From: a virus
Direction: 5' to 3' (one strand)
DNA: 64,000 nt
Virus record (IMG/VR): IMGVR_UViG_3300000553_000009
Coordinates: 62,316-126,315 of that record
A program made the translations under genes and the position numbers. The notes under the pieces are model-generated. The model ran no database searches, had not been told where the DNA came from, and saw nothing but the letters and a program-made list of their open reading frames with translations. This document shows positions 36,129 to 61,427 of the stretch, in pieces. Position 1 is the first letter of the stretch. Every line of letters starts with the position of its first letter.

Positions 36129-36578
36129 ATGAAATCTTTCAAACTATATTTTGTAGAAAAAACTATTCTTGGTTTGGAAGAAACCATTTATATTGATGAA
36201 ATTGGACAACTTAAAGCAAAGCTCGATACTGGTAATGGCGCATTTAATGTTCTCCACGGGGAGGATATCCAACAAGATGGAAAACTTGTTCGCTTTACCA
36301 CCGACAAGGCAATCGTTTTGGAAAAGCCCATATCCAGTAGAATCACAATTAACCTTGGAGCAGGCAATACGGAAGAACGTCCGGTTGTCCTTCTGAATGT
36401 AAAAATTGGAAATAAGATTTTTAAAGACATTCCGTTTTCCATAGGAGACAGAAAAGATAATGTTCATAAGGTTCTAATTGGTAAGAATTTTATACAGACA
36501 AATCTCAACGCACTTGTGGATGTATCCTTGATAGATGTAGCCAGTAAAAATTTAGAGGCAGATTATAAAAATGTATGA
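36129..36578 (+). CDS. Retropepsin-like aspartic protease (RimK-associated 'Zn protease' family-like)
   Basis: KAKLDTGNG catalytic motif, ERPVV, FSIGDR...VLIGKNF. Confidence 0.8.
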   Translation: MKSFKLYFVEKTILGLEETIYIDEIGQLKAKLDTGNGAFNVLHGEDIQQDGKLVRFTTDKAIVLEKPISSRITINLGAGNTEERPVVLLNVKIGNKIFKDIPFSIGDRKDNVHKVLIGKNFIQTNLNALVDVSLIDVASKNLEADYKNV

Positions 36579-37330
36579 AATCATATCCAACAGGAGCGGG
36601 AATATATAAATTGACTTGTGTCAAGAATGGAAAGGTATATATAGGAAAGTCCGTTAATATTTATTTTAGACTTAGTTATCATAAAAGCTGTGAAAAAAAA
36701 TCTAAGGGGAGAGGATATTTTGAAAATTCTATAATAAAATATGGATGGGATTATTTTAATATCGAGATATTAGAAACTGTCGATAATTTTGATAAATTAA
36801 AAGACAACGTCGCTCTTCTTGAAAGAGAAGCATATTATATAAAATTATTTGATTCTACCAATACTTCTAAGGGATATAATATATGTTCGTATTCTACCGA
36901 TAGAACTGGAATACCAAATTCTGAAGAGACGAGAAAAAATATAAGTCAAGGTCAATTAGGACGAAAGCTTTCAGAAGAAACAAAAGAAAAGATTAGACAA
37001 TCTAGACTTGGAAAAGCCGGTACCCCCCATTCTGAAGCGACTAAAGAACACCTAAGACAAATTAATACTGGAAAAAAACTTTCAGAAGAACAGAAAAGTA
37101 AACTGAGACAATTTCGACTCGGGACAAAACACTCCGAAGAAACCAAATTAAAGTTAAGTTTGGCCAGAATTGGCAACTCTAATGCCCGTGGGTTTAAACA
37201 TTCAGAAGAGACTAAAGAAAAATGTAGGTTAGGTAAACTAAAAAGTAAGCAATCCACAACAGAACTTGATGCTCTAATTGATGTTAGTTTATTAAATGTA
37301 GCAGATAAGAATTTGGAGGTATCGGTATGA
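36575..37330 (+). mobile_element. GIY-YIG/NUMOD3 homing endonuclease ending in a copy of the protease C-terminus
   Basis: GIYKLTC...KVYIGKS; last ~24 aa align with the end of the upstream protease. Confidence 0.9.
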
Positions 37331-37887
37331 ATCATTTAACTCAAAAGGAACTTTTATCGGAGGGATTTTGGTCAAAGTTTGGGCAAGGATTGAAAAGTGC
37401 TGGGAAAGCTGGATGGGAAGTTGGAAAATTTTCGGCTAAACATGTAGCTCCATCAGTATATAATCCACTTGCTGCAACAGCAAATGCCACCAAAGAATTA
37501 AATCAAAATATAATCAAGGCTACCACCCCAACTGAAAAATATATCTCAGATCAATTACATATGAGAGGATATGTAGTAGAGGGCCAAATTGAACCTATTC
37601 CAATGCCAAGAGGATTTTCCAAAGAAAAACAAACATTCTTTGTCACTGTCAATAAAATGGCATTCAACCCCACAAGTAAAAAAATGGAAGTATCTACTCT
37701 ACCAAGAGATTTAGATATTCCTTTAGTTGTGGATAAGTATGGAAGCATTATAGAAAATCTGAGAAATAACCCAGAAAAAATTAAGGCATTTAAAGGAAAG
37801 ACTATCACTCGTCCTCCAAAACCAAATCCTCAAGTAATAAATACGCCAGTTGCTCCTGCAACTCCGGTTACTTCTGTAGCCCCTTGA
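37327..37887 (+). CDS. Hypothetical late protein
   Basis: LLSEGFWSK N-terminus, Pro/Thr tail; ATGA overlap. Confidence 0.65.
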   Translation: MNHLTQKELLSEGFWSKFGQGLKSAGKAGWEVGKFSAKHVAPSVYNPLAATANATKELNQNIIKATTPTEKYISDQLHMRGYVVEGQIEPIPMPRGFSKEKQTFFVTVNKMAFNPTSKKMEVSTLPRDLDIPLVVDKYGSIIENLRNNPEKIKAFKGKTITRPPKPNPQVINTPVAPATPVTSVAP

Positions 37888-37919
37888 CATTAAGAAATTT
37901 CATGCTACTTTAGATTTTT

Positions 37920-38189
37920 ATGAACATAGAAATCGTAGCAATAACAGACCAAAACTTTTCTTTAATTTCAAACGGACTTAAAGAAACCATTACTGAACAA
38001 GTAGAATCCTTAGATGAAACTACCGTAGAACTTCCAGTGATTGAGATTCTACCCGATCCAGTAACAGTATCAACTCCTTCCAAAAGAGGTCCAAGACCTG
38101 TCCCATTAGAAAATCATAGTTCTACTGGAACAGGTTGGTTTGAAGGAACTTCTTGGGGAACTTCTGAGAATAAGCACACCTTCAACTAA
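37920..38189 (+). CDS. Hypothetical protein
   Basis: 89 aa, preceded by TTGACA-N16-TACTTT. Confidence 0.5.
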   Translation: MNIEIVAITDQNFSLISNGLKETITEQVESLDETTVELPVIEILPDPVTVSTPSKRGPRPVPLENHSSTGTGWFEGTSWGTSENKHTFN

Positions 38190-38226
38190 AATTGCTTTCT
38201 CTAACTAAGAGATTAAATAATATCAC

Positions 38227-38973
38227 ATGGCAACTAAATCTACCCCCAGGGCGAGACGTAAAGAAGTTAAAAATATTGAGATAGAAACCGCGTTAGCTCA
38301 TAATTATGCTAAATTGGATTTTAAATTTAGAAAAAGAGATTACTCCTTTACGGAAAAACAGAAAGCATTAATTAATGTAATTTTAGATCCTGATATTAAA
38401 GTTGTGATGATTGATGGGGTAGCGGGAACTTCTAAAAGTTTGATTTCTGTTTACTGTGGCTTGACCATGTTACTGAAACAATCCACAAATAAGATGCTTT
38501 TCATGCGATCTGTAGTAGAAAGTTCTCAAAAAGGATTGGGATTTTTGAAAGGCACGCTCGAAGAAAAAATGGAAGTTTGGAGACATGTACTAGATAGTAA
38601 ATGTGAAGAACTGATTGAGCCTTTACATCTTCCGTTAGTTATGGCCTCTGGAAAATTAGAAGCTCTTCCAATTAATTATATTCGAGGGGCATCATGGAAA
38701 AATATGTATGTGGTGGTGGATGAATGTCAAAATCTAGATTATGATGCATATAAATTGATAATGAGTCGGATTGGTGACAATACAAAACTTATTATGTGTG
38801 GGGATTCTGATCAATGTGATATTAAGGATTCTGGATTTAAAAAAGTATATGAAATATTTAATGATTATGATTCCCAAAATATGGGGATAGTGTCTTTTAA
38901 ATTTGAGGAGTCTGACATTGTTAGGTGTGAATTATGTAAGTATATAGTGGGAAAATTTCGAATAGATAGATAA
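38227..38973 (+). CDS. phoH: PhoH-family ATPase
   Basis: GVAGTSKS, RSVVE, LGFLKG...EK, YIRGASW, VDECQN, SRIG, CGDSDQCD, DIVR. Confidence 0.93.
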   Translation: MATKSTPRARRKEVKNIEIETALAHNYAKLDFKFRKRDYSFTEKQKALINVILDPDIKVVMIDGVAGTSKSLISVYCGLTMLLKQSTNKMLFMRSVVESSQKGLGFLKGTLEEKMEVWRHVLDSKCEELIEPLHLPLVMASGKLEALPINYIRGASWKNMYVVVDECQNLDYDAYKLIMSRIGDNTKLIMCGDSDQCDIKDSGFKKVYEIFNDYDSQNMGIVSFKFEESDIVRCELCKYIVGKFRIDR

Positions 38974-39257
38974 CAAGAGAAGATTTTTCATTTTCCGATA
39001 AAAAAGAAACCAGTTATAATAAATAATAGTTTATTCTCGGAAATGAATAGACGATCACATTTATCTTTTTCTAATATTATTTTTACTAGAAAATTTAAAA
39101 CTAAATCTGATAATATTTTACTTTGTTTAGACCAGTCTAGTAATTATGATTGTTATGATACTTTTAAAACTAATAGTACCCTCTATCATAGATGTAAAAA
39201 CTATAAATTGCTAAGACGGATCAAAAAAATTTTGGATGGTAAATCTACAAAAACCAA

Positions 39258-39285
39258 TTGACAAATTAAAAAAATGTGGTAAATT
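39258..39285 (+). promoter_or_regulatory. Sigma70-type promoter with extended -10
   Basis: TTGACA-N16-TAAATT with TG upstream of the -10; ATG 39294 lies 8 nt downstream. Confidence 0.6.
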
Positions 39286-39293
39286 ATTGTTAT

Positions 39294-40025
39294 ATGAGAG
39301 TAAGTATATCTGGATCGGCCGGGGTTGGAAAATCAACATTGGTCGATGCTTTTAAGAGAAGGTGGCCAATGTATCAATATCCCATGAAGACTTATAGAGA
39401 TATTTTAATTGAGAATAATCTTGGGCATTCCACAAATACTTCGGATGAGTCTCAACTGTTGATTTTAGATTGGATGATGGTGGAGCAAAAGAGTCGCCCA
39501 AAAGGGTCGAAGACAATATATGATCGTTGTTCCTGGGACAACCTGTCATACACCCTACAAGGAAATGCGCTTGGAAAAATTTCTGATGAAGTCACTGCCG
39601 CATCCATTTCTTTAGTAAAAGAATCTTTAAAGGATATTGATATTATATTTTGGATCAAATATAATCCAAAAATTAAATTAGTTGAAGATGGAGTAAGAGA
39701 TGTTAAGAAAGAATTTGTCAAAGGAACGGAGGCAGTATTTACGGATTTGTTTCATCAATATATGGAAAATTTAGAACTAGATTTATTCTATCCAAAAGAG
39801 GATTGTCCTGCAATAATTGCAATTGATGATAGTTTCTCTAGCGTTGATGATCGTTTAATGTTTATTGGTGAATTTCTAGACCAGAATGGTGATCTTATTG
39901 AAACTAAGGATAGCATATTAGATCCTGCCAATAATGACATGATGTTGCAAATGTTGAAGGAACAGGAAAAGGAAAAGGCCGCCGATGAGAGACTTAAGAA
40001 AATTATACAAGAATTTAAAAAATAA
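39294..40025 (+). CDS. P-loop nucleoside/nucleotide kinase-like (AAA_28/NadR-type) protein
   Basis: MRVSISGSAGVGKST, IYDRC, D.VRD lid; start reassigned to 39294. Confidence 0.75.
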   Translation: MRVSISGSAGVGKSTLVDAFKRRWPMYQYPMKTYRDILIENNLGHSTNTSDESQLLILDWMMVEQKSRPKGSKTIYDRCSWDNLSYTLQGNALGKISDEVTAASISLVKESLKDIDIIFWIKYNPKIKLVEDGVRDVKKEFVKGTEAVFTDLFHQYMENLELDLFYPKEDCPAIIAIDDSFSSVDDRLMFIGEFLDQNGDLIETKDSILDPANNDMMLQMLKEQEKEKAADERLKKIIQEFKK

Positions 40026-40279
40026 TGCCCTCTAAATCTTATAATCCAAAAGCTTGTTGTGGAGATGATTGTTATTATTTTAATATAGGAGATGAGAAAA
40101 AATATGGAGAATGTTGGGGAGATGTTGAAGTGGTTGGCGAAGAATGTTATGATTATGGAGATGATAATATTGATTGGAATTGGGTCCATTCATGTCAAGC
40201 CCATAAGGACATGTACGATAATCAATGGGAATCCGATTCTGTAAAATACTATATAAAGGAACCAGAAAATGATAAATAA
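40025..40279 (+). CDS. Small Cys-rich acidic protein
   Basis: CC..C...C...C...HSC..H. Confidence 0.55.
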   Translation: MPSKSYNPKACCGDDCYYFNIGDEKKYGECWGDVEVVGEECYDYGDDNIDWNWVHSCQAHKDMYDNQWESDSVKYYIKEPENDK

Positions 40280-41123
40280 TGAACGAATTGGCATAGGAAT
40301 AGTGACCTGCTCTAGAAAAAATATATTTCAGAAATTACATAAATCTTTAATTCAATGCGAAGATATTATTGATCGATTGGTAGTTTTTGAGGATGTTAAA
40401 GGCGAAAGACCCTTTGGTGATGGGGGATATGCTGAAGATATGTTATTCAATTGGAACGGATCACATAGATGTGTGCTGGCCAATGAAAATAAAGGGGTAG
40501 GAAAAGCGAAAAATTATTGTCTTCGAGATCTACTAATTGATGGATGCGACCATATATTTCTAATTGAAGACGATATTTGCATCAGAGATTCTTCAGTATT
40601 TGAAAAATATATTGAAGCTTCTAAGGTTTCTGGTATTCAACATTTCAATTATTCCCAACATGGAGTAATGAATAAGACTTATGGTTGCGGGGTAGATACT
40701 CCAATGCCAAATCCTCGATTTATAATGGATTATGGTCCTCTTAGGATTCCACTGTACCCTCATTGTGTGGGCGCATTCTCATATTACTCTAGAAAATGTT
40801 TAGAAGATGTAGGACTACTTGATGAACGATATTACAATGCCTGCGAGCACGTAGATCATACTTATGAAGTTATTAAAGCGGGAATGCATCCTCCATTTTG
40901 GTATTTTGCAGATATTGACCACTCAGATTTTTATTTAGAGGATGATCCATGGTCAATAGAAAAATCTACAATTTCATCAAATCCCCGACATAAAGAAATG
41001 ATGATTGATGCAGATAAGATATTTGTAACCAAGCATGGACTACTACCCGCACAAATACCATTGACTTCTGAGAAAGAAGTGATAAATTCATTAAAGCAAA
41101 TAAAAAAAAATCATGAAAAATAG
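40269..41123 (+). CDS. Family-2 glycosyltransferase
   Basis: IGIGIVTC, NKGVGKAKN, FLIEDD, VGLLDERY..ACEHVD. Confidence 0.85.
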   Translation: MINNERIGIGIVTCSRKNIFQKLHKSLIQCEDIIDRLVVFEDVKGERPFGDGGYAEDMLFNWNGSHRCVLANENKGVGKAKNYCLRDLLIDGCDHIFLIEDDICIRDSSVFEKYIEASKVSGIQHFNYSQHGVMNKTYGCGVDTPMPNPRFIMDYGPLRIPLYPHCVGAFSYYSRKCLEDVGLLDERYYNACEHVDHTYEVIKAGMHPPFWYFADIDHSDFYLEDDPWSIEKSTISSNPRHKEMMIDADKIFVTKHGLLPAQIPLTSEKEVINSLKQIKKNHEK

Positions 41124-41667
41124 TTTAGATTCTTTATGGATCGGAGCAACCACCAGAAAAATACAGCAGATTAGAGAAGAGTGGGAGTGGCTTATATTTA
41201 AAATTAAAGAGAAGGGATATTCTCAAAATATTTTAGAAATTGGATGTTATGATGGGGGGTCGTCTTGGTATTTAAATCATTTTGCCAAGAACATGATTAC
41301 TATAGATAATAATTATCCTTGTAGATTTGATCCTTCTCAATTAGGAGAAGGATATTTATATGTAGGAGGAGATAGTCATGATCCAAAAATGGATGAATAT
41401 TTTTCTAGATATGAATGGGATTTTGTGTTTATTGATGGTGATCACTCTTATGAAGGAGTAAAAGCAGATTTCTATAATATTTTACCTTTCCTGAAGGAAG
41501 AAACTATAGTTGCATTTCACGATATAGCAATCTCAGATTTTCATAACACTCATGGTTGTCATGTGGGAGAGTTTTGGAGAGACTTAAAAGACAAATATCC
41601 ACCATCACAAATTAATGAGTTTTCTCTTAATAAAGAGTGGGCAGGAATAGGAATAATAACACTTTAA
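41113..41667 (+). CDS. Class I SAM-dependent methyltransferase
   Basis: LEIGCYDGGS, GDSH, FIDGDHSYEGVKADF, AFHDI. Confidence 0.88.
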   Translation: MKNSLDSLWIGATTRKIQQIREEWEWLIFKIKEKGYSQNILEIGCYDGGSSWYLNHFAKNMITIDNNYPCRFDPSQLGEGYLYVGGDSHDPKMDEYFSRYEWDFVFIDGDHSYEGVKADFYNILPFLKEETIVAFHDIAISDFHNTHGCHVGEFWRDLKDKYPPSQINEFSLNKEWAGIGIITL

Positions 41668-41671
41668 TATT

Positions 41672-42184
41672 ATGAGAAATCAACTTTTTAAAAGAAGGAC
41701 AGCGGAATTTATTGAAACGGGATCACATACAGGAATAGGAATTCAATTGGCATTAATGTCAGGATTTTCTAAAATATATTCCATAGAGTTAGTGGATAAT
41801 TATTTCAATGAGTGTGTAGAAAAATTTAAAAATAATAGTAATGTATATTTAATTTTAGGGGATTCTTATTTTAAACTTAAAGAATTACTAGATAATAATC
41901 CTAATATTCCATTTACTTATTGGCTGGATGGGCATTATAGCGGAGGAGATACTGGATTTGGAGTAGAGGAATCTCCTCTAATGAAAGAATTGGAAACTAT
42001 TTTGAGCAGAGAAGTAAAAGGAGAACTTATCTATGTGGATGATATGAGACTATATAGAGAGTTTAATGAGTCTTTAAATTTTCCCAATATGGTAAAACTT
42101 ATTAAAAGATATCAACCCGATGCGGTCATTTGGTATGAGTCTAGTCCGTATGACATAGAAGATATATTAGCTATAGAATATTAA
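41672..42184 (+). CDS. Methyltransferase-fold protein
   Basis: FIETG, SIE, GDS, WLDGHYSGG, IYVDDMR. Confidence 0.7.
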   Translation: MRNQLFKRRTAEFIETGSHTGIGIQLALMSGFSKIYSIELVDNYFNECVEKFKNNSNVYLILGDSYFKLKELLDNNPNIPFTYWLDGHYSGGDTGFGVEESPLMKELETILSREVKGELIYVDDMRLYREFNESLNFPNMVKLIKRYQPDAVIWYESSPYDIEDILAIEY

Positions 42185-42186
42185 TT

Positions 42187-49981: not shown

Positions 49982-50032
49982 ATGATTAGAGTAGAAGACC
50001 AGCTTAAAAATACTAAATACATGAATGAGTGA
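49982..50032 (+). pseudogene. Orphaned 5' end of the gene now starting at 50872
   Basis: MIRVEDQLKN(TKYMNE*) vs MLRLDNQLKS. Confidence 0.6.
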
Positions 50033-50885
50033 TCATTCTAAATATCCAAAAGAGGCCGGTATCTATAAATTAACTTGTTCTGATAATGGAAAAGTGTATA
50101 TAGGAAAATCAGTAAACATTCATGTTAGACTTATAAACCATAAAAGTTATGAAAACAAGTCTAAAGGGAAATGTTATTTCCAAAATGCTATAATAAAATA
50201 TGGTTGGAACGCTTTCACGGTTGAAATACTAGAAATATTCGAAAATTTTGATAAGTTAAAAGATAACGATAGTCTTCTTTCAAGAGAATCATACTATATA
50301 GAACTATTTGATTCTGCCAATGTTGACAAAGGATACAACTTATGTAAATATTCTAATGATATGACTGGTCGAAAACTTTCCGAAGAAACGAAAGAAAAAA
50401 TGAGAAAGCCTAAATCCGAGGAACATATAGCAAAAATGAGAAATCGCCCGTGTTCAAAAGAAACAAGAGATAAAATAAGACAGTCTCAGATAGGAAGACA
50501 ACACTCCGAAGAATCTAAAGAAAAAATGAGAAGGGCGAATATAGGAAAAAAATTATCTGAAGAAACTAAAGAAAAAATAGGAAAGGCTGGAAAGGGGAGA
50601 CGACACTCCAAAGAAGCTAAAGAGAAAATGAGACTAGCTAATATGGGAAAAAAACACTCCGAAGAAACCAAAGAAAAACTTCGAAATATATCCGAAGAAA
50701 AGAGAGAAGAAACAAGACAAATGGGAAAGTCAAACTTGGGCAGAAAACACTCCGATGAAACCAAGAAAAAAATAAGCGAAGCCGGAAAGAAAAACTCTGG
50801 GAAACATCACTCGGAAGAAACAAAAGAGAAAATGAGATTATCTCACCAGAAACGATGGAATATAAAAAAATATGCTACGACTTGA
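50025..50885 (+). mobile_element. Free-standing GIY-YIG/NUMOD3 homing endonuclease
   Basis: GIYKLTC...KVYIGKS, RESYYI, many HSEE repeats; TAAATA-N5-ATG. Confidence 0.9.
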
Positions 50886-51207
50886 CAACCAACTAAAAAG
50901 TTTAATATTTAAACATGTGGATTTTCAATTGGATGGGAAATCCATTAAGAAAGGAAAAATTCAAATATTCAATACTAAACAATTTTTCATAAAGTTTAAA
51001 TTAGATAATGGAGGAGATATTAAAGAATATGAGTTGCCCTATCCTTTTAAAGTCGTAAAAATTCCAAATGGATATTTGTTTGATTATTCCTTATCTGCAT
51101 TCATTCCAAGAACTGAAGAAATGTATTGGAAAATGAAATGTATGAACAAATCAGAAGCTTCCAAGCTTCATGACAGTTATCTCTACGTTTTGACACTTTC
51201 CTCTTGA
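50872..51207 (+). CDS. Hypothetical beta-rich protein
   Basis: 111 aa, overlaps the endonuclease stop by 14 nt. Confidence 0.65.
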   Translation: MLRLDNQLKSLIFKHVDFQLDGKSIKKGKIQIFNTKQFFIKFKLDNGGDIKEYELPYPFKVVKIPNGYLFDYSLSAFIPRTEEMYWKMKCMNKSEASKLHDSYLYVLTLSS

Positions 51208-51231
51208 TTTGAATCAAAATCGTGGTAAAGT
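51204..51231 (+). promoter_or_regulatory. Sigma70-type promoter with extended -10
   Basis: TTGATT-N16-TAAAGT with TG upstream of the -10; ATG 51239 follows after 7 nt. Confidence 0.55.
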
Positions 51232-51238
51232 CGAACAA

Positions 51239-52849
51239 ATGACAGGACTTTTACTCAACTTTCCCGAAGGATACGAACCAAACAATGCACAGAAAATCAT
51301 TCTCACTAAGATGGAAAAAGCCATCGGAGAGAATAAAAAATTCATAATTGTGAATGCACCAACTGGAAGTGGTAAAAGTTTACTTCCCAAAACATTGGCA
51401 AATGTTGTAAATGGTCCATCCGAAAATTTTAAAAAATGTGTAGATAACTATTCAATTTTTGGAGATGATGGCCCAGATTTAATGGAAGATGAAAATTTTG
51501 GAGTTTATGCATTGACAATAACCAAAGCATTACAAGATCAATATAAAAATACTTTTCCTGATACTGGAATCTTAAAAGGGCAAGGAAATTATCAATGTGG
51601 ATTAGATGATTCCATGACAGTTGATATTGCCCCTTGCATATATGTGAAAGGGTTAAAACAAGATTGTTGGAAATGTAATAAATGTCCATACTATAATCAT
51701 AGAAATGAAATGCTTAAGAGTACTTTTTCCTCTTTAAATTATAGTATGTTTTTTTCCCTTCCGTCTCATTTGAGAAAAAGAAAAGTTATTGTGTGTGATG
51801 AGGGATCGGAATTGGAAGATCAATTGATAAATCTTTTTACATGTGAAGTGGATTTACCATTTTTAGTAAAAACGAATACGGAAGTTTCATCATTTCCAAT
51901 GCAGGAAACAGATCAAAAAGTCTTAGCATGGGCAACTTCATTACTTAGAAGTGTTGCCGATAATGTGGAAAATTATAAAGATCTTATCAAAAATGAAAAA
52001 CGAGGAATTGATTTATCTAAAAGACGTTCCGAATATACTAAACTGACCAATCTTCAAAAATCCTTGGAGACACTGATTCATACTTATTATGATGCTCAAT
52101 ATCTTATAGAGCGTATAGATAAAAAGATAAGATTTATCCCACTTAAAATAGATAAACTTTCCAAATTCATTTTTGATTGCGCGGAACATGTGGTTATTAT
52201 GTCTGCTACCATTATTGATCCTGTCAACTTTTGTAAAAACTTAGGAATAACAGATTATGAATATATTGAAGTATCCACTGGATTTGATCCAGAGAAAGCT
52301 CCAATATATGTAATGGTAAAACAGAAATTAAATTTTGGAAATCTTAAGGATATGTTGCCCAAACTGGCAACACAAGTAGCAGGGTTATTGGAAGAACATA
52401 AAAATGAAAAGGGAATCATACACACTCACACCCAGTATATTACAGATTATATTAAAGATAATGTTCATTCGTCCAGGTTACTTTGTAGGGCGCCGGGAGT
52501 TCGCAATGAAGAGCTACTTGACATGCATGAACAAAGTCCACACGCGACAGTTTTGGTGTCTCCAAGCATGACCTACGGAGTTGACCTTCACGGTGATTTG
52601 GCAACTTTTCAAATTCTTTTAAAAGCTCCATGGTTGCCAACAAAAGAGATAAGGGTTGAAAAAATGATGAAACTTGATAAATCGTGGTACACTAATAAAA
52701 TGCTGTGTACTTTGGTTCAAGCATGCGGAAGAGGAATACGATCCCTCGATGATGAATGTATCACTTATATTTTAGATGGGTCCATTTACGATACGATAGA
52801 AGAAAACAAACAAAAACTTCCAAAATTCTTTATAGATAGATTTCAATGA
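51239..52849 (+). CDS. DinG/XPD-like SF2 helicase with Fe-S-type Cys cluster
   Basis: APTGSGKS, KALQDQY, LKGQGNYQC...C...C..C..CPY, DEGS, MSAT, GVDL, KAPW, QACGRGIRS.DD. Confidence 0.9.
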   Translation: MTGLLLNFPEGYEPNNAQKIILTKMEKAIGENKKFIIVNAPTGSGKSLLPKTLANVVNGPSENFKKCVDNYSIFGDDGPDLMEDENFGVYALTITKALQDQYKNTFPDTGILKGQGNYQCGLDDSMTVDIAPCIYVKGLKQDCWKCNKCPYYNHRNEMLKSTFSSLNYSMFFSLPSHLRKRKVIVCDEGSELEDQLINLFTCEVDLPFLVKTNTEVSSFPMQETDQKVLAWATSLLRSVADNVENYKDLIKNEKRGIDLSKRRSEYTKLTNLQKSLETLIHTYYDAQYLIERIDKKIRFIPLKIDKLSKFIFDCAEHVVIMSATIIDPVNFCKNLGITDYEYIEVSTGFDPEKAPIYVMVKQKLNFGNLKDMLPKLATQVAGLLEEHKNEKGIIHTHTQYITDYIKDNVHSSRLLCRAPGVRNEELLDMHEQSPHATVLVSPSMTYGVDLHGDLATFQILLKAPWLPTKEIRVEKMMKLDKSWYTNKMLCTLVQACGRGIRSLDDECITYILDGSIYDTIEENKQKLPKFFIDRFQ

Positions 52850-52912
52850 CACCTAAAGAGGAACTCACATTTCTCAAAAAAGCATTAAAATTTTTAAAAA
52901 AATAAAACACAA

Positions 52913-54040
52913 ATGACACAGTTAATAACACAATTACTAAAACAAATAACTTGGATTGATAGAAATATAAAAATTCCCCGTGAATATGCTATGAAACCTG
53001 ATTATCCATCAGAGTTTCAACAATATTTTGGAACTACTCCTTTCGCATCCTTAAAGTTCGATAAAATTCTCTATAGAAATAAGTTTAAAAGCTTTGTGAA
53101 GTATCTCATGGATTTGGATTTTGTGCCGGTTCAAATGGGAACGTCATCATTCAAATTAGTGAACTTTCATAGAAATATTTTAATTGTGGGAGAGATTGCG
53201 GACATCATTAAAGAAGAATCAGAGGAGGAAGAAGAGCAAGGATATGCTGTTAATAATAACGAAGAGGTATTTGTTTCTTTTTATCCAACTATGGAAAATA
53301 AAGGATTTGTCACTGAACTTATTAAAAAAGTTGATTCTAAGTTTTTAAGAGAAGAGTTGATTGTTCGTAATAAGTTTTTCATGGTGGCACAGAATCAAAG
53401 AGGTTTATATTCTCAAAGGACCACATTTAAAGCAATTCCTATTAAGGATGATAGATATGATTTATTTTACGGTAAAAAGTTTCCCCACGAAGATTTTAAA
53501 AAGTTCATAACAGATGAAACTGAACATTTAATGTTATTTTATGGAGAACCAGGCACAGGCAAGTCAAATTATCTCAAAAATCTTATAATCAATTCCAGAA
53601 AGAATGTTATATACATTCCACCGGGAATGTTAAGGGTGATTTCTTCTCCAGATTTTGTATCTTATGTGATGGAAAATAAAAATAGTATTTTGATTGTAGA
53701 AGACGCAGAAGATGTTCTTTCAATAGATAGGAACGCTGCGACAACAAATCTATTACAAATTTGCGACGGATTTTTACGCGACTGCCTCAACTTGAAGGTA
53801 CTGGCAACTTTTAACGCGCCTATAAGTAAAATTGATCCAGCTTTATTACGTAAAGGGAGATTATATATGAGTCATGAATTTGTAAAATTAACTCCCAGCG
53901 AATCTAATAAATTGGCGGATTTCTGTGGAATAAATTATAATTTTACGGAGGATTCTTCATTGGCGGAAATTTTTAATGTTAAGAAATCTACTTCTGCTCT
54001 ATCCAAACCTACTACTGCTATTGGTTTTGGAAACTTTTAA
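52913..54040 (+). CDS. AAA+ ATPase with N-terminal domain
   Basis: YGEPGTGKS, LIVEDAE, ATFN, IDPALLRKGR. Confidence 0.88.
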   Translation: MTQLITQLLKQITWIDRNIKIPREYAMKPDYPSEFQQYFGTTPFASLKFDKILYRNKFKSFVKYLMDLDFVPVQMGTSSFKLVNFHRNILIVGEIADIIKEESEEEEEQGYAVNNNEEVFVSFYPTMENKGFVTELIKKVDSKFLREELIVRNKFFMVAQNQRGLYSQRTTFKAIPIKDDRYDLFYGKKFPHEDFKKFITDETEHLMLFYGEPGTGKSNYLKNLIINSRKNVIYIPPGMLRVISSPDFVSYVMENKNSILIVEDAEDVLSIDRNAATTNLLQICDGFLRDCLNLKVLATFNAPISKIDPALLRKGRLYMSHEFVKLTPSESNKLADFCGINYNFTEDSSLAEIFNVKKSTSALSKPTTAIGFGNF

Positions 54041-55068
54041 ATTTCGTTCGATGAATCAGACTCATTTAAGAGTTTTAGTTTTAAAACACGTCTTTGTTTA
54101 TTAGAATTTCTTATTTTTTGTTTAGTTTCCTCACTATGCGGAAATCGTTTTCTATTCTTTTGAGCAATAGACATTTTTAACTTAGACTCTTCGGACATAG
54201 GGATTCCTTTTTTCAGGCTGGGTTTGCCTTTCCGAGAAATAGACATTTTCATTCTGGATTCTTCTGATACCGATTTTCCTTTTCTTGGACTGGCTTTTCC
54301 CTTATGGGCATTCGAAATTTTTAACTTAGTTTCTTCAGACATAGGAGAACGAGTTTTTCCTTTTCGAGCTAAAGACATTTTGAGTTTTGTTTCCTCTGTA
54401 TGTTTTCGCCCTCTAACGGAATCAGCTAATTTTTGGCGATGTTCAGGAGTTCTACACTTAGCTTTATCCGATAGATATTGTCTTTGCTCCGGTGTTAAAT
54501 TTAATTTTTTCCCTTTATTGATATTAGGAATTCCTTTCCGCAATCCCGCCAATCGTTGACGTTCCTCTTCTGAGCAAGATTTACCGAAATTATGGTGATT
54601 CTCTCCCGATCTGGCCAATGACATATTATTTCTAGCTTCCAATGACATTTTAGTTCCTAGTTTAAGAGAAGACATTCTTTGTTTGCACTCTTCGGTATGT
54701 TTAAATCCTTTATTAGATTCTACTCTTTTTCGTTTAGTTTCTTCGGATTGAACTATTCCAGTCGGATCTATTCCTCTGGCAGATATATTATATCCATTAG
54801 GAACTAACGAATTATATCTTACTATCATTTGTTCTTCTAAGTCTAATAAACTTTCCTTGTCAAAATCTGGAAGATAATATATTTCTAATTCAAAGTTTTC
54901 CTTTCCATATTTTTCTATGGCTTTTCTTATAATTTGCGTATTGGGTCTATTATGTTGGGCCATCCTTCTTTTCATGTTACTAGTCTCCCCGATATAGTAT
55001 TTGTCATTCACAATACATCTCATAATGTAAACTCCTGCTCGTCTCTCAAATACATCTGTTAATTTCAT
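54037..55068 (-). mobile_element. GIY-YIG/NUMOD3 endonuclease of RHH cassette 1
   Basis: GVYIM...YYIGET, LEEQMI, VPNGYN, basic SEE repeats. Confidence 0.88.
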
Positions 55069-55073
55069 AATAA

Positions 55074-55208
55074 TTATTTTAAATAGTTTTCTAATAGCCT
55101 TTTAATAACCTCAGACATGGTTATCCCAGTGTCCTTGGCGTTTTGTCTTAATTTTTCTTTCATAATTTTAGTTAGAAAGACTTCTATTTTTTCTTTATTG
55201 GTGGGCAT
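55074..55208 (-). CDS. Ribbon-helix-helix (CopG-like) protein, 44 aa, not in the ORF track
   Basis: MPTNKEKIEVFLTKIMKEKLRQNAKDTGITMSEVIKRLLENYLK; TAAATA-N5-ATG. Confidence 0.75.
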   Translation of the reverse strand: MPTNKEKIEVFLTKIMKEKLRQNAKDTGITMSEVIKRLLENYLK

Positions 55209-55284
55209 AATATTATTTAGCTTTTTTCGTCATGTTTTTTTCATGATTAAGTTTAAACTAAATACCATGGTATAAATAGGAGTA

Positions 55285-55353
55285 GTGCAGAGATATTCCT
55301 ATCACAAAGAGCAACTTCAAATGCTAACACAATTTGTGGCGGCATTTGAATAG
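55285..55353 (+). pseudogene. Orphaned 5' end of gp15 behind a TATAAATA late promoter
   Basis: GTG-QRYSYHKEQLQMLTQFVAAFE* vs gp15 MEKYAYYREQMSMLTQFSAAFDG (12/22 identical). Confidence 0.8.
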
Positions 55354-55397
55354 TTAAAAATCCTTTTTATAGTACCGCGGGATACGAATTAATTCGT

Positions 55398-56063
55398 TTA
55401 ATTCATTAATTCATTTAATTGTTGTAATAATTGAGAAAGTTTTTTTCTTTTTTGATCAATTCTTATTTTTTCTTTATGCTCTGGTGATTGCTTTCGACCT
55501 TTTAATGGACTGATCTTTCCTCTATGTGAAAGGGATTGTTTCAATCTCCATTGAGAGGATCTTGGAGGGTGTGTTCTTCCGACCTGCGACCGGGACATTT
55601 GTTCTCTGGTTTCTATAGATAATGGCCCCTTTAATTTACCCTTTTTTCTGTCGGACATTTTTTTCTTAGTTTCATCAGAAAATATTCTTTTGGGATTATC
55701 TATCCATGATTGTTTTATTTTAAAAATGGCCTCTGGAGTATGTTTATATCCAGTACTATCATTTCCCCGTTTTGATATATTATAACCGAACGGCACCAAA
55801 GAATTAAACTTTATAATTAGTTGTTCTTCTAAGTCTAATAAGTCACATTTTTTAAAATATGAAAAATATTCCACGTATACACTAAAATTATCAATCCCAT
55901 ATTTTTTAATGGCGCTATGGATTACTTGATTTCCGATAGCGTTTCGATGAGTAAAAAGTCTTTCTTTTATATCTACGCTCTCTCCAATATAGTATTTATG
56001 ATTTATATTATTCTGTATAATATAAATCCCCGGTATACGATTAAATGTATCAGTAAGTTTCAT
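55398..56063 (-). mobile_element. GIY-YIG/NUMOD3 endonuclease of RHH cassette 2
   Basis: GIYII...YYIGES, LEEQLI, VPFGYN; same MKLTD.F.R start as cassette 1. Confidence 0.88.
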
Positions 56064-56205
56064 GTTGTGTTTTGAAATATTGTTCTAATGCACGCTTAAT
56101 GACCTCTCCCATAGTTATACCCAACTGATTAGCATTATCTTTGATCTTTGTTTTAGAATCTTCGGATATAAATACTTCTATTTTTTTCTTTTTCATTTTT
56201 TCCAT
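56050..56205 (-). CDS. Ribbon-helix-helix (CopG-like) protein, 51 aa
   Basis: Start reassigned to 56205: MEKMKKKKIEVFISEDSKTKIKDNANQLGITMGEVIKRALEQYFKTQHETY; TAAATA (56211-56216)-N5-ATG. Confidence 0.75.
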   Translation of the reverse strand: MEKMKKKKIEVFISEDSKTKIKDNANQLGITMGEVIKRALEQYFKTQHETY

Positions 56206-56218
56206 ATAAGTATTTAGC

Positions 56219-56261
56219 ATTTTTCCAGATTTTTTCCAGATTTTTTCCAGATTTTTTCCAG
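56219..56261 (-). repeat. Four tandem 11-bp direct repeats (CTGGAAAAAAT)
   Basis: Three exact copies plus one with one fewer A, abutting the RHH late promoter. Confidence 0.9.
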
Positions 56262-56301
56262 TAATAATTATATTTAGTATCAACATACTAAATATTTTCA
56301 C

Positions 56302-57378
56302 ATGGAAAAATACGCATATTATAGAGAACAGATGAGTATGCTTACTCAATTTTCAGCGGCTTTCGATGGAGCTTTTCTTTATAGATATTCACTTGATGGG
56401 ACTCCACAGGAAAAAATATCTGTCCGATATGTAATGGGGCCAAAACAAAGAGTATTATATGATATTGTAAGTCAAGCTAAAAATATAACTCTTCCCGTAA
56501 TTGCCATGGAACAGACAAATATTAGAAGAGATTCTTCTCGTATTCAGTTTAAGGACCAAAAGATTACGCGACCTAATATGTCCAATCGGAACATATCAAA
56601 GGTTCCATCGCCCGTTCCAGTTATGTGCGACTTGAATGTTTCCTTCATCGCCAATTATAAGGAAGACGTAGATCAAATAGTATCCAACTTTATACCCTGG
56701 TGTAATCCATATTTTATAATTTCATGGAAAGTTCCGCCTGATTTTGGAATGGATTTCATTGATGAACTGAGAACAGAAGTGTCTTGGTCAGGTACGGTGG
56801 ATTATGAAAATCCAGTAAATATTGCCGCGCAAGACAAATATAAAATAGTTGGAAATACATCATTTACTATTAAAGGATGGATATTTCCTGCATTAGAGAC
56901 TCCTCAAGCTCCAATTTATGTAATAAATTCAAATTTTATATCTGTATCATCTGGAAGTCTTTTTAGTTATAATACTTGGGAAACATTATCATCATATGAT
57001 TCTACTGATACCATTTTAATTTCGGCATATCCGGAGATAACTAATTCTTTCTATAATGGAAAACCATATTATGATAATCCTACAATATCTACCAATAATG
57101 ATAGCAACTTTACATATTATGGTAAACGATTCGGATTTAATAATTCTTGGTATCTTTCTGGTAATTATGTCGCTCCTTTGATACTGGAGGAAATAGATAC
57201 ATTCAAATTTCCCACTATTTCCGCATATAGACTTCCAGATAGTTTTATAACAACGGTCAATGACAACATTGCGGTCATTTCTTTAAGTTCCAGATATCTC
57301 TCTGCGGGGTCGTTTACAATTGTAACATCTAATTCCGCTGGTTGGGTATCATCTCCAAATGTAATAACTATTATATAA
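56302..57378 (+). CDS. gp15: Tail terminator / sheath stabilizer (gp15-like) with C-terminal extension
   Basis: V.Y.MGPKQR, LPVIA, R.SSR, PVP...LNV......DQIVSNFIPW.NPY, FTIKGWIFP. Confidence 0.85.
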   Translation: MEKYAYYREQMSMLTQFSAAFDGAFLYRYSLDGTPQEKISVRYVMGPKQRVLYDIVSQAKNITLPVIAMEQTNIRRDSSRIQFKDQKITRPNMSNRNISKVPSPVPVMCDLNVSFIANYKEDVDQIVSNFIPWCNPYFIISWKVPPDFGMDFIDELRTEVSWSGTVDYENPVNIAAQDKYKIVGNTSFTIKGWIFPALETPQAPIYVINSNFISVSSGSLFSYNTWETLSSYDSTDTILISAYPEITNSFYNGKPYYDNPTISTNNDSNFTYYGKRFGFNNSWYLSGNYVAPLILEEIDTFKFPTISAYRLPDSFITTVNDNIAVISLSSRYLSAGSFTIVTSNSAGWVSSPNVITII

Positions 57379-57413
57379 TGCTTGATATTTAGTCAAATCG
57401 CTTAAATAACGAT

Positions 57414-59228
57414 ATGGCGAATACTATGAATAATCCGAATAATCGGAGTAATTTAAGCAGGGACGGTAAATCGGGCATGTATGATCGCTCATTGACCTCC
57501 TATTTAAAAAATAGATTGCCATATAATTATAGTGTTTTGGATTCCGATGATTCCAAAAATACCAAATATAAGTATTTCCAAAAGGTTGGAATGCGTCGTC
57601 CAGAGGCGATTGCTAAGAATTCCATAACCCTTTCCAATGACTTTAATAATACCGCTTACTCTTCTATTGAAAGAGATAAAAGCTTCGGAGAAGTCATGTA
57701 TGCCGCCGCTTCTGAGGATAAACCTGGAAGAATGCGCGATTACCGCACTATGGCAGCATTCTCAGAGATTAATGATGCTCTGAATGAAATAGCGGATGAA
57801 ACCATAAATGTCGATGATAACGATCAGATAGTTTTACTCAAAATAAAAAATGCAGACTTGGACTCGGATCAAAAGGAAACATTGATGACTGAGTTCGATA
57901 AGTATATCGAACATTTTGATCTACCTAATAATGGATGGAAATATTTTAAGACATTCCTAGTAGAGGGGGAATTATTTTTCGAACAGATAATTCATAAGGA
58001 TTATGTAAATCAGGGTGTTCTTGGAATTGTTAATATTCCTTCCGAAATGATAGATCCCGTATATTCCAATATTCAAAATATGTTGGTAAAAGGATATCTT
58101 TATCAAAAACCTATTTTTGATAAAAACGATCCAAAAAAGATTGAAAAATATGAACCTATTCCCTTCGAGGAAAATCAGGTGGTATATATTAACAATTCGG
58201 AATATAACGAGACAAAAGAATTCATTGTTCCATATATTGAAAATGCCCGTAGAGCGTATAGGCAATTATCGATGATTGAAGATTCCATTGTAATTCATAG
58301 AATGGTCCATGCTCCTCTTCGGTTTGTGTTTAATGTAGATGTGGGACGATTGCCGGTCCCACAAGCGGAAGCATATCTAAGAAAACTTCAATCACAATAT
58401 TGGTCAACTAAAACATTTGATGCGGACCAGGGCGATATCGTAAAGAAATATAGTCCTCAATCCACTTTAGATTCTTATTGGTTCGCTAAGAAACAAGGTC
58501 AAGAGGCAACCTCAGTTCAAGAAATTGGAGGAACTCCGGGTTTAGGGGAACTGGCGGATTTAATGTTTTTTATTAAAAAACTTTATAGATCACTGGGAGT
58601 GCCCACATCGAGATTAGATCCAGAAGATTCATTTCGAGATGGTACAGATATTTTAAGAGAAGAATTAAAGTTTGATACCATGATTATGAGGCAACAAAAG
58701 AAATTTGCTTCTGGTCTTAAAAGAGGATTTATAACTCATTTAAAATTCAGGGAATTATTTGATGAATACGATTTAACTGAACAAAATATTAGTATTACAT
58801 TCAATCCGCCCTCCAATTTTCATGATCTTAGAAATAATCAAAAACTAGAGCTTAAGATTAATTCTTTCAATAATCTTATAAGTACGGGAAAAATTTCTAC
58901 TACATTAGGATTGAAAAAGGTTATGGGATGGCAAGATAAAGAAATTCTTGCAAATCGGGAGTTTCTTCGCAAAGACAGTGCTCTTGAGTGGGAGTTGGCA
59001 CAGATAACATCTCTAGGGCCAGCATGGAAGAAACAATTATTAGATCAAGCTAATGCCGGTGCTCCTCCTGCCGAGGGAGATTTGGGGGGAGGAGCTGGGG
59101 GAGGAGCCGCTATACCCTCATTTGGGGGAGGGCCAGTAGATATAGGAGGGGAAGAAGCTCCAGTTCCCCCGCCCAATGCGGGAAATCCTCCTGTGGCTCC
59201 AGCAGTTCCAGAAGAACCTCCGACTTAA
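57414..59228 (+). CDS. gp20: Portal protein (gp20)
   Basis: YR.MA..SEI.DA..EI, FLVEGE, QLSMIEDSIVIHR..HAP.R.VFNVDVG.LP..QAE.YL, YWFAK, KKLYRSL.VP.SRL. Confidence 0.97.
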   Translation: MANTMNNPNNRSNLSRDGKSGMYDRSLTSYLKNRLPYNYSVLDSDDSKNTKYKYFQKVGMRRPEAIAKNSITLSNDFNNTAYSSIERDKSFGEVMYAAASEDKPGRMRDYRTMAAFSEINDALNEIADETINVDDNDQIVLLKIKNADLDSDQKETLMTEFDKYIEHFDLPNNGWKYFKTFLVEGELFFEQIIHKDYVNQGVLGIVNIPSEMIDPVYSNIQNMLVKGYLYQKPIFDKNDPKKIEKYEPIPFEENQVVYINNSEYNETKEFIVPYIENARRAYRQLSMIEDSIVIHRMVHAPLRFVFNVDVGRLPVPQAEAYLRKLQSQYWSTKTFDADQGDIVKKYSPQSTLDSYWFAKKQGQEATSVQEIGGTPGLGELADLMFFIKKLYRSLGVPTSRLDPEDSFRDGTDILREELKFDTMIMRQQKKFASGLKRGFITHLKFRELFDEYDLTEQNISITFNPPSNFHDLRNNQKLELKINSFNNLISTGKISTTLGLKKVMGWQDKEILANREFLRKDSALEWELAQITSLGPAWKKQLLDQANAGAPPAEGDLGGGAGGGAAIPSFGGGPVDIGGEEAPVPPPNAGNPPVAPAVPEEPPT

Positions 59229-59566
59229 TAATTACTATTAATGGTATGGGCGTATTTCAATGGCTCTAAAGGCTGACACCAAGTCACACAATTAAAAGCG
59301 GAACTATAATAAAAATTAGTGCCATAATTTGCTCCCGTGCTTAAGGTAGGAGAGGAAGAAACACTACAGACCGTGGCATAAAAATTACTTCCATAATTTA
59401 CAGATAATTCAGGATATATGGTAGATTGCCCATATATAATGTAATCATTTGCAGAATTGAAATAGTAATGTGTTCCCGAATTTGCCCAAGTTAAAAGACT
59501 TGCATCGGAAGGAATTCCACACGATTCGGGATAAAAAATGGTTGCACTATTTAAATCATAAGCCAT
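59225..59566 (-). CDS. Ser/Tyr/Asn-rich hypothetical late protein
   Basis: TAAATA-N5-ATG; internal NYG(S/T)NFY repeats. Confidence 0.65.
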   Translation of the reverse strand: MAYDLNSATIFYPESCGIPSDASLLTWANSGTHYYFNSANDYIIYGQSTIYPELSVNYGSNFYATVCSVSSSPTLSTGANYGTNFYYSSAFNCVTWCQPLEPLKYAHTINSNY

Positions 59567-59592
59567 AACTATATTTAATACTAAATAGTTTT

Positions 59593-60273
59593 ATGTCCGA
59601 TCTTTGTCAAGAACTTAAAATATGCACTAAATGTAGGGAGGAGAGAAGCATCAGTGAATTTGTTGCTGATAAACAGAAAAAGGATGGGTTGAGATCTTCT
59701 TGTAAAAGATGTGGCCAAATATCAAATAAAAAATATTATAACGATAATAAAAATTATTTATTAGAACAGCATAAAGTATATAGAGAAACAATAAAATGCA
59801 GTCCTGTAAAAAATGATAAACAAAAAGAATATCATAAAATACATAATAAAAACTATAGAGAACTTCCAAAAACTAAACTTAGACGATCAGAAATTAGTAA
59901 TATTAGAAAAATTGAAAATAGGCCCTATAAAAATACCCTAAAATTATCTAATCCGAAATTGTATAGTCGGATTAGATGTTTATATACTAAAAAATATAGA
60001 TTAAAAAATCCAGATAAAATCACCCAATATAAGATAAAACGAAGAACGGGGGAACTTCGTTCTATTAAATTTCTGTCTCCTGATGATATATTTAAAATGC
60101 GATTGATATATTTAAAAAGAGATTTTATATCAGAATTGACGGGAATAAAACATCACGTAGACCATATACATCCATTAATCCATCCTGATTTTTGTGGATT
60201 ACACGTCCCATGGAACCTACAGATATTAACCGAATCGGAAAACTGTAAAAAGAGTAATAAACTTATTTATTAA
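59593..60273 (+). mobile_element. Free-standing HNH endonuclease with N-terminal Zn finger
   Basis: CTKC...CKRC; HHVDHIHPL...GLHVPWNLQIL...ENCKKSN. Confidence 0.9.
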
Positions 60274-60281
60274 ATATAGGT

Positions 60282-61427
60282 ATGAGTCAACTTTGTTCTT
60301 TAACCCCTATTTCTGCTTTCATGAGCACAAATTTAAGCTCAAGGATACAATGTTATCAAGAATTGGGTCAAAGAGTTCTTAGACTTCTTGGACATCCCAT
60401 GATTAATGTAGAGATTCATCCAGATCAGTTATATGACGCCATTTCCATGGCTTGTGAATTTTTTACCAGATATGCGGGATATACAAAAGAATATTTGATT
60501 TTTGATTCCACTTTATATGAGGCAAATAGAGGAATAAGACTGGATCATTTATTCACAGTGGCAAATACAGGATTTACCTTATCACAAAAGTTAAACGAGA
60601 GTACTATTCCCAATCCAGACTTTACAGTTACTCTTAGAGAAAACGTATATATTTCTTTGTCTGCTTTGGATTATTCTTATTTTTTGGGATCTTCTTCTCT
60701 GTCATGTCAAGTACCACTGGACGGCATTTCTATGTTACAAGTGGTTGACGGAACGACATATGCACAATTAACTGCATATAGTCCAGATTTGATAAATGTA
60801 TTTAAAGTTTCTCCTATAAAACCTTTCACTATTCAATGTGAAACAATTCCCGACGTAACTACATATAATAATGTATTTGATTACGACACTCTAGACTATA
60901 GAAAAGTTATAGAAGTGGTTAATTTTGAAGAAGGAAGTGCTAGTGGAATTACTTCTTTATTTTCTTTGGAGGCTACTATGGCACAACAGACCTTCTATAG
61001 CTATGCCATGGGAAATTTTGGATTTGATCTTCTGTCTTGGCATGCAGTAAAAGACTGGCAAAAAACTAGAGAAAAACTTCTGGCGATTCGTAGAGATATA
61101 TATTTCGACAATAGAACTCAATATCTAAGATTTATACCTCAACCTAAAAGCTCTTCCTCATTTGTTGGAGTATTAGAATGTTATGTGGAACGTCCTTTAA
61201 GAGACATAATAAAAGAAAAATGGGTATTGGAATATGCCGTTGCCCTTAGCAAAATTATGTGGGGTAGGATTTTGACTAAAATAGATGGGGTTCAGCTATT
61301 GGGAGGAGGAACGCTAAATGGTCGAGAAGTTCTATCTGAAGGGGTATCCGATAAGAAAGAATTGGAAGAAATGTTAATAGATGGCGGATATGGTGATGTT
61401 TTGCCCATGGATTTTCTTGTAAATTAA
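60282..61427 (+). CDS. gp13: Neck protein (gp13-like)
   Basis: L..R.LR.LGHP.INVEI...QL.DAI, W.LEYA.AL.K..WG..L.K..GVQL.GG.TLNG. Confidence 0.9.
   Translation: MSQLCSLTPISAFMSTNLSSRIQCYQELGQRVLRLLGHPMINVEIHPDQLYDAISMACEFFTRYAGYTKEYLIFDSTLYEANRGIRLDHLFTVANTGFTLSQKLNESTIPNPDFTVTLRENVYISLSALDYSYFLGSSSLSCQVPLDGISMLQVVDGTTYAQLTAYSPDLINVFKVSPIKPFTIQCETIPDVTTYNNVFDYDTLDYRKVIEVVNFEEGSASGITSLFSLEATMAQQTFYSYAMGNFGFDLLSWHAVKDWQKTREKLLAIRRDIYFDNRTQYLRFIPQPKSSSSFVGVLECYVERPLRDIIKEKWVLEYAVALSKIMWGRILTKIDGVQLLGGGTLNGREVLSEGVSDKKELEEMLIDGGYGDVLPMDFLVN

Follow-up and report, generated by a model that had tools for sequence, protein, structure and literature searches.

How can a free-standing homing endonuclease gene sit inside the coding sequence of another gene and leave that gene intact? 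Homing endonucleases are thought to reach conserved coding targets mainly through introns or inteins. The question is raised by positions 36129-61427 of a 64,000-nucleotide stretch of viral DNA (the window), which is the final 64 kb of one 126-kb contig (IMG/VR record IMGVR_UViG_3300000553_000009). In this region endonuclease genes stand at the ends of four host genes: a Zn_protease-family gene, a 111-codon gene that we call orf50872, a gp15-like tail sheath stabiliser gene and a gp13-like neck/adaptor gene. An earlier note, made from the letters of the sequence, had claimed that each nuclease gene lies within the first or last codons of its host gene and that the severed end is present twice. 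This was borne out at all four loci, including gp13, which had been listed as a possible case. On the evidence set out below, these are probably free-standing homing-endonuclease cassettes (three GIY-YIG and one HNH) lying inside the terminal 5-22 codons of their host genes, each bringing a substitute for the end that it displaced.

The window comes from an uncultured myovirus of low GC content (~32%) that has a portal gene of the T4 type as well as gp15-like and gp13-like genes. When 12.5 kb of the window was used as a megablast query, there was no DNA-level match among cultured phages; the nearest cultured portal proteins, from T4-like cyanophages, are ~29% identical. In IMG/VR and metagenome collections we found dozens of collinear relatives (designated L plus a number) with 50-75% protein identity, some on contigs of ~200 kb. 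The gene order common to these relatives is o49436, orf50872, helicase, (AAA), gp15, portal, a small antisense gene, gp13 and fibre. Empty alleles of all four sites occur among ~20-35 related metagenomic phages in which this order is conserved. Some relatives carry occupied alleles at the protease site and the gp15 site, while most have no nuclease gene at these sites.

The region contains five nuclease genes, four of the GIY-YIG type with NUMOD3 repeats (GIY1 to GIY4) and one HNH/EndoVII-like gene. Pfam identified the GIY-YIG domain (PF01541) in all four GIY genes and one to four copies of NUMOD3 (PF07460) in each protein. The positions G9/Y11, Y22-I23-G24, R32, E85 and N102, which include the catalytic Tyr/Tyr/Arg/Glu/Asn set, are invariant in an alignment of all seven GIY-YIG paralogs of the window. 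The other three paralogs, GIY5, GIY6 and GIY7, precede this region in the window; a further HNH gene is located on the contig outside the window (C1:31532-32383). GIY6 (18756-19631) falls inside 15765-19631 on the minus strand, a putative split-intein “fractured” uvsX region.

No intron or intein is involved at the four loci, in line with the earlier note, which saw no need for one. Rfam returned no match at E ≤ 0.1 across 35500-62000 and hence no intron-like RNA. Host and nuclease genes are separate open reading frames (ORFs) with stop codons between them and carry no intein blocks, and the four host genes are full-length ORFs that match their relatives from end to end. For the duplications themselves, each terminal 40-residue peptide was run by tblastn against all six reading frames of the entire window.

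The protease locus consists of the following features:
36129..36578, plus strand: host gene 1, a Zn_protease-family gene of 149 amino acids (Pfam PF05618)
36498-36575, plus strand: working substitute protease C-terminus, the last ~26 codons, associated with homing-endonuclease genes (HEGs) (outlier tract; closest to HEG-bearing alleles)
36575..37330, plus strand: GIY1, a GIY-YIG/NUMOD3 gene (Pfam; catalytic residues conserved)
37259..37330, plus strand: orphan (resident-type) protease C-terminus with the original stop (similarity to the working copy; consensus of the empty alleles)

The two copies of the protease C-terminus, 36498-36557 and 37259-37318, are identical at 14 of 20 amino acids (E 1e-5), the best non-self match in the whole-window search. 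The ATG of GIY1 overlaps the protease stop codon (ATGA). The orphan end is read in frame as the last ~22 codons of GIY1, and in the family alignment the GIY1 tail reaches ~20 amino acids beyond the normal end. The original stop of the orphan overlaps the start of the next gene (37327), again as ATGA. Empty protease alleles end in ELDALIDV..NVA.K..EV.V with an ATGA stop/start overlap, and the window orphan has exactly that form. In contrast, the working copy has a different ending, and its stop overlaps the start of GIY1 rather than that of the next gene. The working end is nearest to the HEG-bearing alleles of L085, L087 and L088 (30-31 of 42 nucleotides). Compared to nine empty alleles, its codons 124-143 are an outlier both in nucleotide identity (0.53 versus 0.65) and in the use of the same codon (0.32 versus 0.43).

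L085/86 and L088/89 have GIY1 homologs at this position, and an orphan comes after each of them; the L088 orphan reads in frame, whereas the one in L085 is frameshifted. We compared element and backbone in this pair; the window's own copies have no close relative. The L088 orphan is identical to the empty alleles L093 and L094 at 14 of 14 amino acids and 35-36 of 42 nucleotides, compared to just 8 of 14 amino acids for L088's own working end. That working end matches the one in L085 at 13 of 14 amino acids. L088 and L085 are 88-92% identical at the nucleotide level over the nuclease gene and 70-80% in the backbone; identity climbs from the final codons of the protease gene onward, and past the orphan the two sequences are unrelated. 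This pattern indicates that the substitute end and the nuclease gene travelled together into another allele background and that the orphan is the recipient's own end. As read from these alignments, horizontal movement of the protease-site cassette between relatives is demonstrated.

At the second locus the insertion is at the 5' end of the host gene:
49982..50032, plus strand: orphan orf50872 N-terminus, 10 homologous codons (49982-50011) in a 16-codon remnant ORF (unique high-scoring 9-mer)
50025..50885, plus strand: GIY2, a GIY-YIG/NUMOD3 gene with its own TAAATA-N5-ATG at 50014-50027 (Pfam; motif; alignment)
50872..51207, plus strand: host gene 2, orf50872, 111 amino acids, with the substitute N-terminus MLRLDNQLK (matches relatives over residues 1-111)

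Among the 75,157 six-frame 9-mers of the window, MIRVEDQLK at 49982 is the sole other 9-mer that scores at least 30 (BLOSUM62) against MLRLDNQLK. The orphan lies 43 nucleotides upstream of the GIY2 start, the stop of the remnant ORF overlaps that start, and the 3' end of GIY2 overlaps the new orf50872 start by 14 nucleotides. The orphan keeps the upstream motif of the relatives (gtaattat..ATG) and the family signature M-x-[KR]-[LV]-E. This site is empty in all relatives. The closest homologs of GIY2 (about 52-56%) sit at other sites, and site-specific homing is not demonstrable from them.

The gp13 locus is occupied by the HNH gene:
59582..59607, plus strand: ancestral gp13 start region, TAAATA-N5-ATG and codons 1-5 (MSDLC); the HNH ORF now opens with these codons (upstream sequence, spacing and consensus of relatives)
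59593..60273, plus strand: HNH/EndoVII-like endonuclease ORF fused to gp13 codons 1-5 (phrog_1035)
60271..61427, plus strand: host gene 4, the gp13-like neck/adaptor gene (60282-61427), whose TAAATA-N5-ATG and MSQLC are substitutes (phrog_211; matches relatives over residues 1-380)

Within the window, tblastn found no second copy of the gp13 N-terminus, and the case was settled by synteny with the relatives. In these phages gp13 starts 26-28 nucleotides from the start of a divergent antisense gene, with TAAATA-N5-ATG followed by MS[DE]LC. In the window it is the HNH ORF, beginning MSDLC, that starts at this conserved position, 26 nucleotides from the divergent gene (59225-59566, minus strand), and the sequence upstream of its start is identical to that of L016 (taaatagtttt ATG). 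gp13 restarts 689 nucleotides downstream, at 60282, with a second TAAATA-N5-ATG and MSQLC; the TAA stop of the HNH ORF provides the first three bases of the new TAAATA. The HNH ORF matched phrog_1035 “endonuclease VII” (1.2e-22) and HNH phrogs and contains an HHxDH motif, with no Pfam match above threshold. Its distant homologs align only from residue 7-9 onward, as expected if the head is fused to gp13 codons. An HNH gene is present at the gp13 site in no relative, and its closest homologs (at most 31% over full length) sit at other sites, so that site-specific homing is not demonstrable from them.

The TAAATA-N5-ATG motif is itself abundant: 21 copies were found in the window, mostly at ORF starts, versus 3.0 expected, and 0 of 100 shuffles reached 21. 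Examples lie at 50014-50027, 57403-57416, 59582-59595 and 60271-60284 on the plus strand and at 55206-55219, 56203-56216, 8998-9011 and 19629-19642 on the minus strand. If TAAATA acts like a T4 late promoter, transcription would start at or next to the AUG, that is, late mRNAs would be leaderless.

The gp15 locus is more complex, with two antisense cassettes:
54037..55208, minus strand: first antisense cassette, GIY3 (54037-55068) and a small ribbon-helix-helix (RHH) gene (55074-55208) with TAAATA-N5-ATG (Pfam GIY-YIG/NUMOD3; RHH_1)
55271..55353, plus strand: orphan gp15 start, TATAAATA, with GTG start, 22 codons and a stop at 55351 (similarity to gp15)
55398..56205, minus strand: second antisense cassette, GIY4 (55398-56063) and an RHH gene (56050-56205) (Pfam; 64% identity to the same-site L013 nuclease)
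56289..57378, plus strand: host gene 3, the gp15-like tail sheath stabiliser (56302-57378), which starts with ATG and has a TAAATA of its own at 56289-56294 (Pfam PF16724, phrog_227; full length versus relatives)

The gp15 N-terminus is duplicated in 56302-56367 and 55285-55350 (12 of 22 amino acids identical, E 2e-6 in the six-frame window search). The orphan has the GTG start and the YSY/QFVAAF features of most relatives, in which the gp15 GTG follows a few bases after TAAATA; the orphan likewise has TATAAATA, then GTG. GIY3 and GIY4 are each preceded by a small RHH gene (in the first cassette, 26 bits to PF01402, RHH_1, against a cut-off of 20.5), and this conserved two-gene cassette also occurs upstream of gp15 in L007 and L013/L221. 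The other GIY-YIG subfamily in the window has no RHH partner. The RHH protein might repress the nuclease or contribute to its specificity. Four homologous copies (two in the window and one each in L007 and L013) exist of a module that runs from the nuclease start through a ~200-nucleotide spacer, which encodes RHH on the nuclease strand, to TAAATA and the gp15 start; the copies align over their whole length. The 3' flank of GIY4 was not alignable to L007 or L013, and the left junction can therefore be placed only between 55351 and 55398. The layout looks like the result of a second cassette with an attached gp15 start having been put into a genome that already held one.

The surroundings of gp15 vary as well. 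The gap between gp15 and portal holds variable insertions of ~0.8-5 kb in L004, L007, L008, L014, L015 and L019 and measures 25-40 nucleotides in the window and other relatives. An AAA ATPase gene (52913-54040 in the window, between helicase and gp15) is present only in some relatives, with 45-52% amino acid identity versus 70-75% for its neighbors; its patchy presence and high divergence mark this slot as a hotspot for variable content.

To look for further cases, we scored the similarity of left and right junctions at 16 GIY-YIG loci of related contigs (14 found with GIY2, plus the protease-site loci L085 and L088) and at the window's eight nuclease loci, using mismatched pairs as the null. 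Beyond the protease-site cases, the scan identified L138 (score 83, null maximum 64). Here a GIY-YIG gene follows codon 24 of a fibre gene (L138:570-3464; a homolog of window gene 61470), and 24 codons are duplicated. Over codons 1-24, identical residues use the same codon as seven empty alleles in 32% of cases for the working copy and 72% for the orphan, compared to 66% among the empties themselves; from codon 25 on, the gene is typical (0.58 versus 0.55). In L143 (L143:1203-3435) a GIY-YIG gene follows codon 12 of a homolog of window ORF 10504-11823 (minus strand), and 12 codons are duplicated, both copies starting with Met. Its junction score of 42 is within the null range (null fraction 0.047), and this case rests on inspection rather than statistics. 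The window holds empty alleles of both the L138 and the L143 sites. The repeated use of such insertions by this phage lineage, as the earlier note had it, is thus seen at the four window loci, L085/86, L088/89 and L138, and by inspection at L143. Judged from these contigs, terminus replacement is frequent in the lineage and not universal.

If an empty allele is what the cassette invaded, it should match the orphan. This expectation of the earlier note held cleanly in L088 and in L138, where the orphan is closer than the working copy to all seven empties. It held modestly in the window at orf50872, where 11 of 14 comparisons favored the orphan and working codons 2-10 are slightly more diverged from the empties, and at the protease gene (7 of 9). 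At gp15 neither copy was preferred. A tract that diverges beyond ordinary alleles was found only in the window protease gene and L138, and in both it coincides exactly with the duplicated segment (codons 124-143 and codons 1-24, respectively). In the block-wise comparison orf50872 leans the same way over nine codons only, and gp15 and gp13 show nothing. Three of the four window orphans nevertheless keep their ancestral flank: the ATGA overlap at the protease gene, gtaattat..ATG at orf50872, and TAAATA-N5-ATG with its spacing at gp13. At the level of sequence, the anatomy of the loci, the empty alleles and the ancestral context of these three orphans are demonstrated.

From this anatomy we infer a cleavage specificity, a resistance of the substitute end and a repair pathway. 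The nuclease would cut an empty allele near the junction, and double-strand-break repair would copy the cassette from a cassette-bearing genome, with the gene body as the homology arm on one side and the orphan together with the far flank or neighboring gene on the other. At a 3' end the cassette would bring a substitute terminus and a stop overlapping the nuclease start; at a 5' end it would bring a new start codon, plus a TAAATA promoter-like motif at gp13 and gp15. Because the cassette supplies the substitute end, the host gene remains a complete ORF and the resident end is left as the orphan. The substitute end would derive from a different allele lineage and so presumably escape cutting, and at ~60-65% nucleotide identity to the orphan it would be too far diverged for recombination between the two copies to remove the insert. 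The earlier note proposed that the spare end would abolish the site that its own nuclease recognises, which is plausible. Three of the four nuclease genes may also piggy-back on host expression signals: GIY1 would be coupled to the protease stop and continue across the orphan as far as the old stop/start overlap, the GIY2 start codon is where the remnant orf50872 ORF ends, and the HNH gene would rely on the promoter-like motif, the start codon and the first five codons of gp13 itself.

Several observations weigh against this reading, and most of them favor a different one, in which the orphans are incidental scars. According to this alternative the cassettes are ordinary intergenic ones, and a terminus is duplicated only when homology is one-sided and the other side is closed by an illegitimate join. 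It fits gp15 best, where RHH, GIY4 and a gp15 start would have landed in a genome with RHH and GIY3; an incidental one-sided repair product is a serious alternative at that locus. L007 and L013 carry the gp15-site cassette without an orphan, which is therefore not an obligate part of the element, and the complete module is present in the window as two diverged tandem copies. Neither gp15 copy is closer to the empties, the working N-terminus has no outlier tract, and the ancestral context of the orphan is limited to the TAAATA-type motif and the GTG start. No terminal duplication was detectable at GIY5 to GIY7 in the window or at the HNH paralog C1:31532-32383 on the same contig. The divergence of the window copies is also ordinary. 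The earlier note had seen heavy synonymous change, or recoding, between the two copies, and this did not survive comparison: identical residues use different codons at a frequency of 0.64 in the protease and 0.58 in the gp15 pair, versus 0.55 +/- 0.13 and 0.52 +/- 0.12, respectively, in ordinary orthologous pairs at the same protein identity. These values are indistinguishable, nothing beyond normal allelic divergence is needed, and we rejected an excess of synonymous change in these two pairs. Two further points count against terminus replacement itself: the duplicated coding part at gp13 is only 5 codons long, and viral and metagenome scans found no relative above ~75% amino acid identity, so that the window's orphans cannot be matched to a near-isogenic empty allele. 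On the other side, the protease-site arrangement, orphan included, persists in three diverged lineages and has been transferred horizontally in one piece; the substitute end in L138 and the window protease gene is a discrete tract bounded exactly by the duplication; and the starts and stops of the nuclease genes coincide time and again with host signals, which random joins would not produce without selection. We therefore consider incidental scars unlikely as an account of the whole set.

The direct repeats that flank each insert could also suggest in situ tandem duplication of the gene ends, followed by insertion of a nuclease gene between the copies and later divergence. However, the copies differ at 35-40% of bases, yet the proteins are similar and the changes mostly synonymous or conservative. 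This implies that both copies evolved under selection as working alleles in separate genomes, as an unselected orphan would decay; furthermore, other phages carry each of the two different allele groups into which the orphan and the working end of L088 fall. This makes tandem duplication highly improbable. A transposon target-site duplication, in which a staggered cut leaves short identical direct repeats, was rejected, as the repeats are 15-66 nucleotides long, only ~60-65% identical and conserved at the protein level. The contig comes from an uncultured source and is known as an assembly alone, and one could suspect two strain variants joined in tandem by the assembler, or chance similarity. 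Such an explanation is hardly credible: the same architecture occurs in independent assemblies from different samples (L085/86, L088/89, L138 and L143), the reading frames and stop/start overlaps are coherent, and the whole-window statistics exclude chance. Insertion of cassettes that bring a substitute end remains our preferred explanation.

Among known systems, the arrangement most resembles the mORF “gene hybrids” of fungal mitochondria, in which an endonuclease ORF brings a foreign C-terminus and the native one, which matches close relatives, is left downstream (PMC3630166). Examples given in that report and in work that it cites are Glomus atp6, atp9, cox2 and nad3, Rhizopus atp9 and Mortierella cox2, and it also cites an Allomyces macrogynus atp6 case. 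In both systems an endonuclease ORF (GIY-YIG or LAGLIDADG in the fungi) lies at the gene end between two copies of the terminus and the gene is kept intact, and some cases are fused in phase (PMC3630166). In the fungal hybrids the inserted copy is diverged as DNA and similar as protein (PMC3630166); a native orphan beside a diverged working end is seen in L088 and L138 and modestly at the window's protease gene and orf50872, with no preference at gp15. The protease/GIY1 locus follows this design closely. Unlike the mORF hybrids, our cases are on a phage contig rather than in a mitochondrial genome, and three of the four in the window are N-terminal, a form not described in the mitochondrial reports consulted (PMC3630166). 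The N-terminal cases duplicate a start codon, plus the TAAATA motif at gp13 and gp15; the nuclease takes over the original host start (gp13) or sits directly behind it (orf50872); and the gp15 cassette is antisense and includes an RHH gene. The phage arrangement thus works like an mORF hybrid and is not a member of that group by context.

The Seg (GIY-YIG) and Mob (HNH) free-standing endonuclease genes of T4-like phages are described as intergenic (PMC2988022). They share with the window genes a GIY-YIG or HNH domain (the latter putative in the gp13-site gene) combined with DNA-binding modules, variable presence at fixed sites and co-conversion of flanking markers (PMC2988022). This literature reports start/stop overlaps (for example, mobE) and host promoters embedded in the cassette and does not mention duplicated gene ends (PMC2988022). 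The window insertions differ in that they lie inside coding sequence and duplicate a piece of the host gene, a piece that is partly translated within the nuclease (GIY1 tail, HNH head). As in inteins, group I introns and split-intein “fractured genes” (PMC2677866), the endonuclease occupies a conserved coding site and the gene survives; unlike in introns and inteins, there is no RNA or protein splicing, and the gene is restored at the DNA level by the spare end, which works only near gene termini. We found no phage precedent for terminus replacement in full-text searches of an incomplete library.

Terminus replacement may be a general, so far undescribed, splicing-free route by which free-standing homing endonucleases enter phage coding sequence, including an N-terminal form that captures both the promoter-like motif and the start codon of the host gene (TAAATA-N5-ATG in this case) and gives that gene a foreign replacement, with the spare end as a discrete cleavage-resistant module. 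We put forward this broader proposal tentatively, at somewhat less than even confidence. The loci are noteworthy because the arrangement recurs, because its N-terminal form takes over the start of the host gene and because the substitute tract has sharp boundaries. An element that supplies its own gene end, a fix at the DNA level, would widen the range of sites open to homing endonucleases. It would also account for short leftover ORFs and unusual extensions at either end of phage nuclease genes that are puzzling in annotation, and for hybrid host genes in which end and body have separate histories, a source of mosaicism in essential structural genes. Pairs of orphan and substitute ends would mark the likely recognition sites of uncharacterised nucleases and could be useful for finding sequence-specific enzymes.

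For a mid-gene site, the same phage lineage uses the intein route. The window helicase gene (51209-52849) is intein-free, and in some relatives the helicase P-loop carries an intein of ~300 amino acids with an HNH motif (APTG|C...HN|SGKS) within one continuous ORF (L020:2191-4740, and also L004 and L019).

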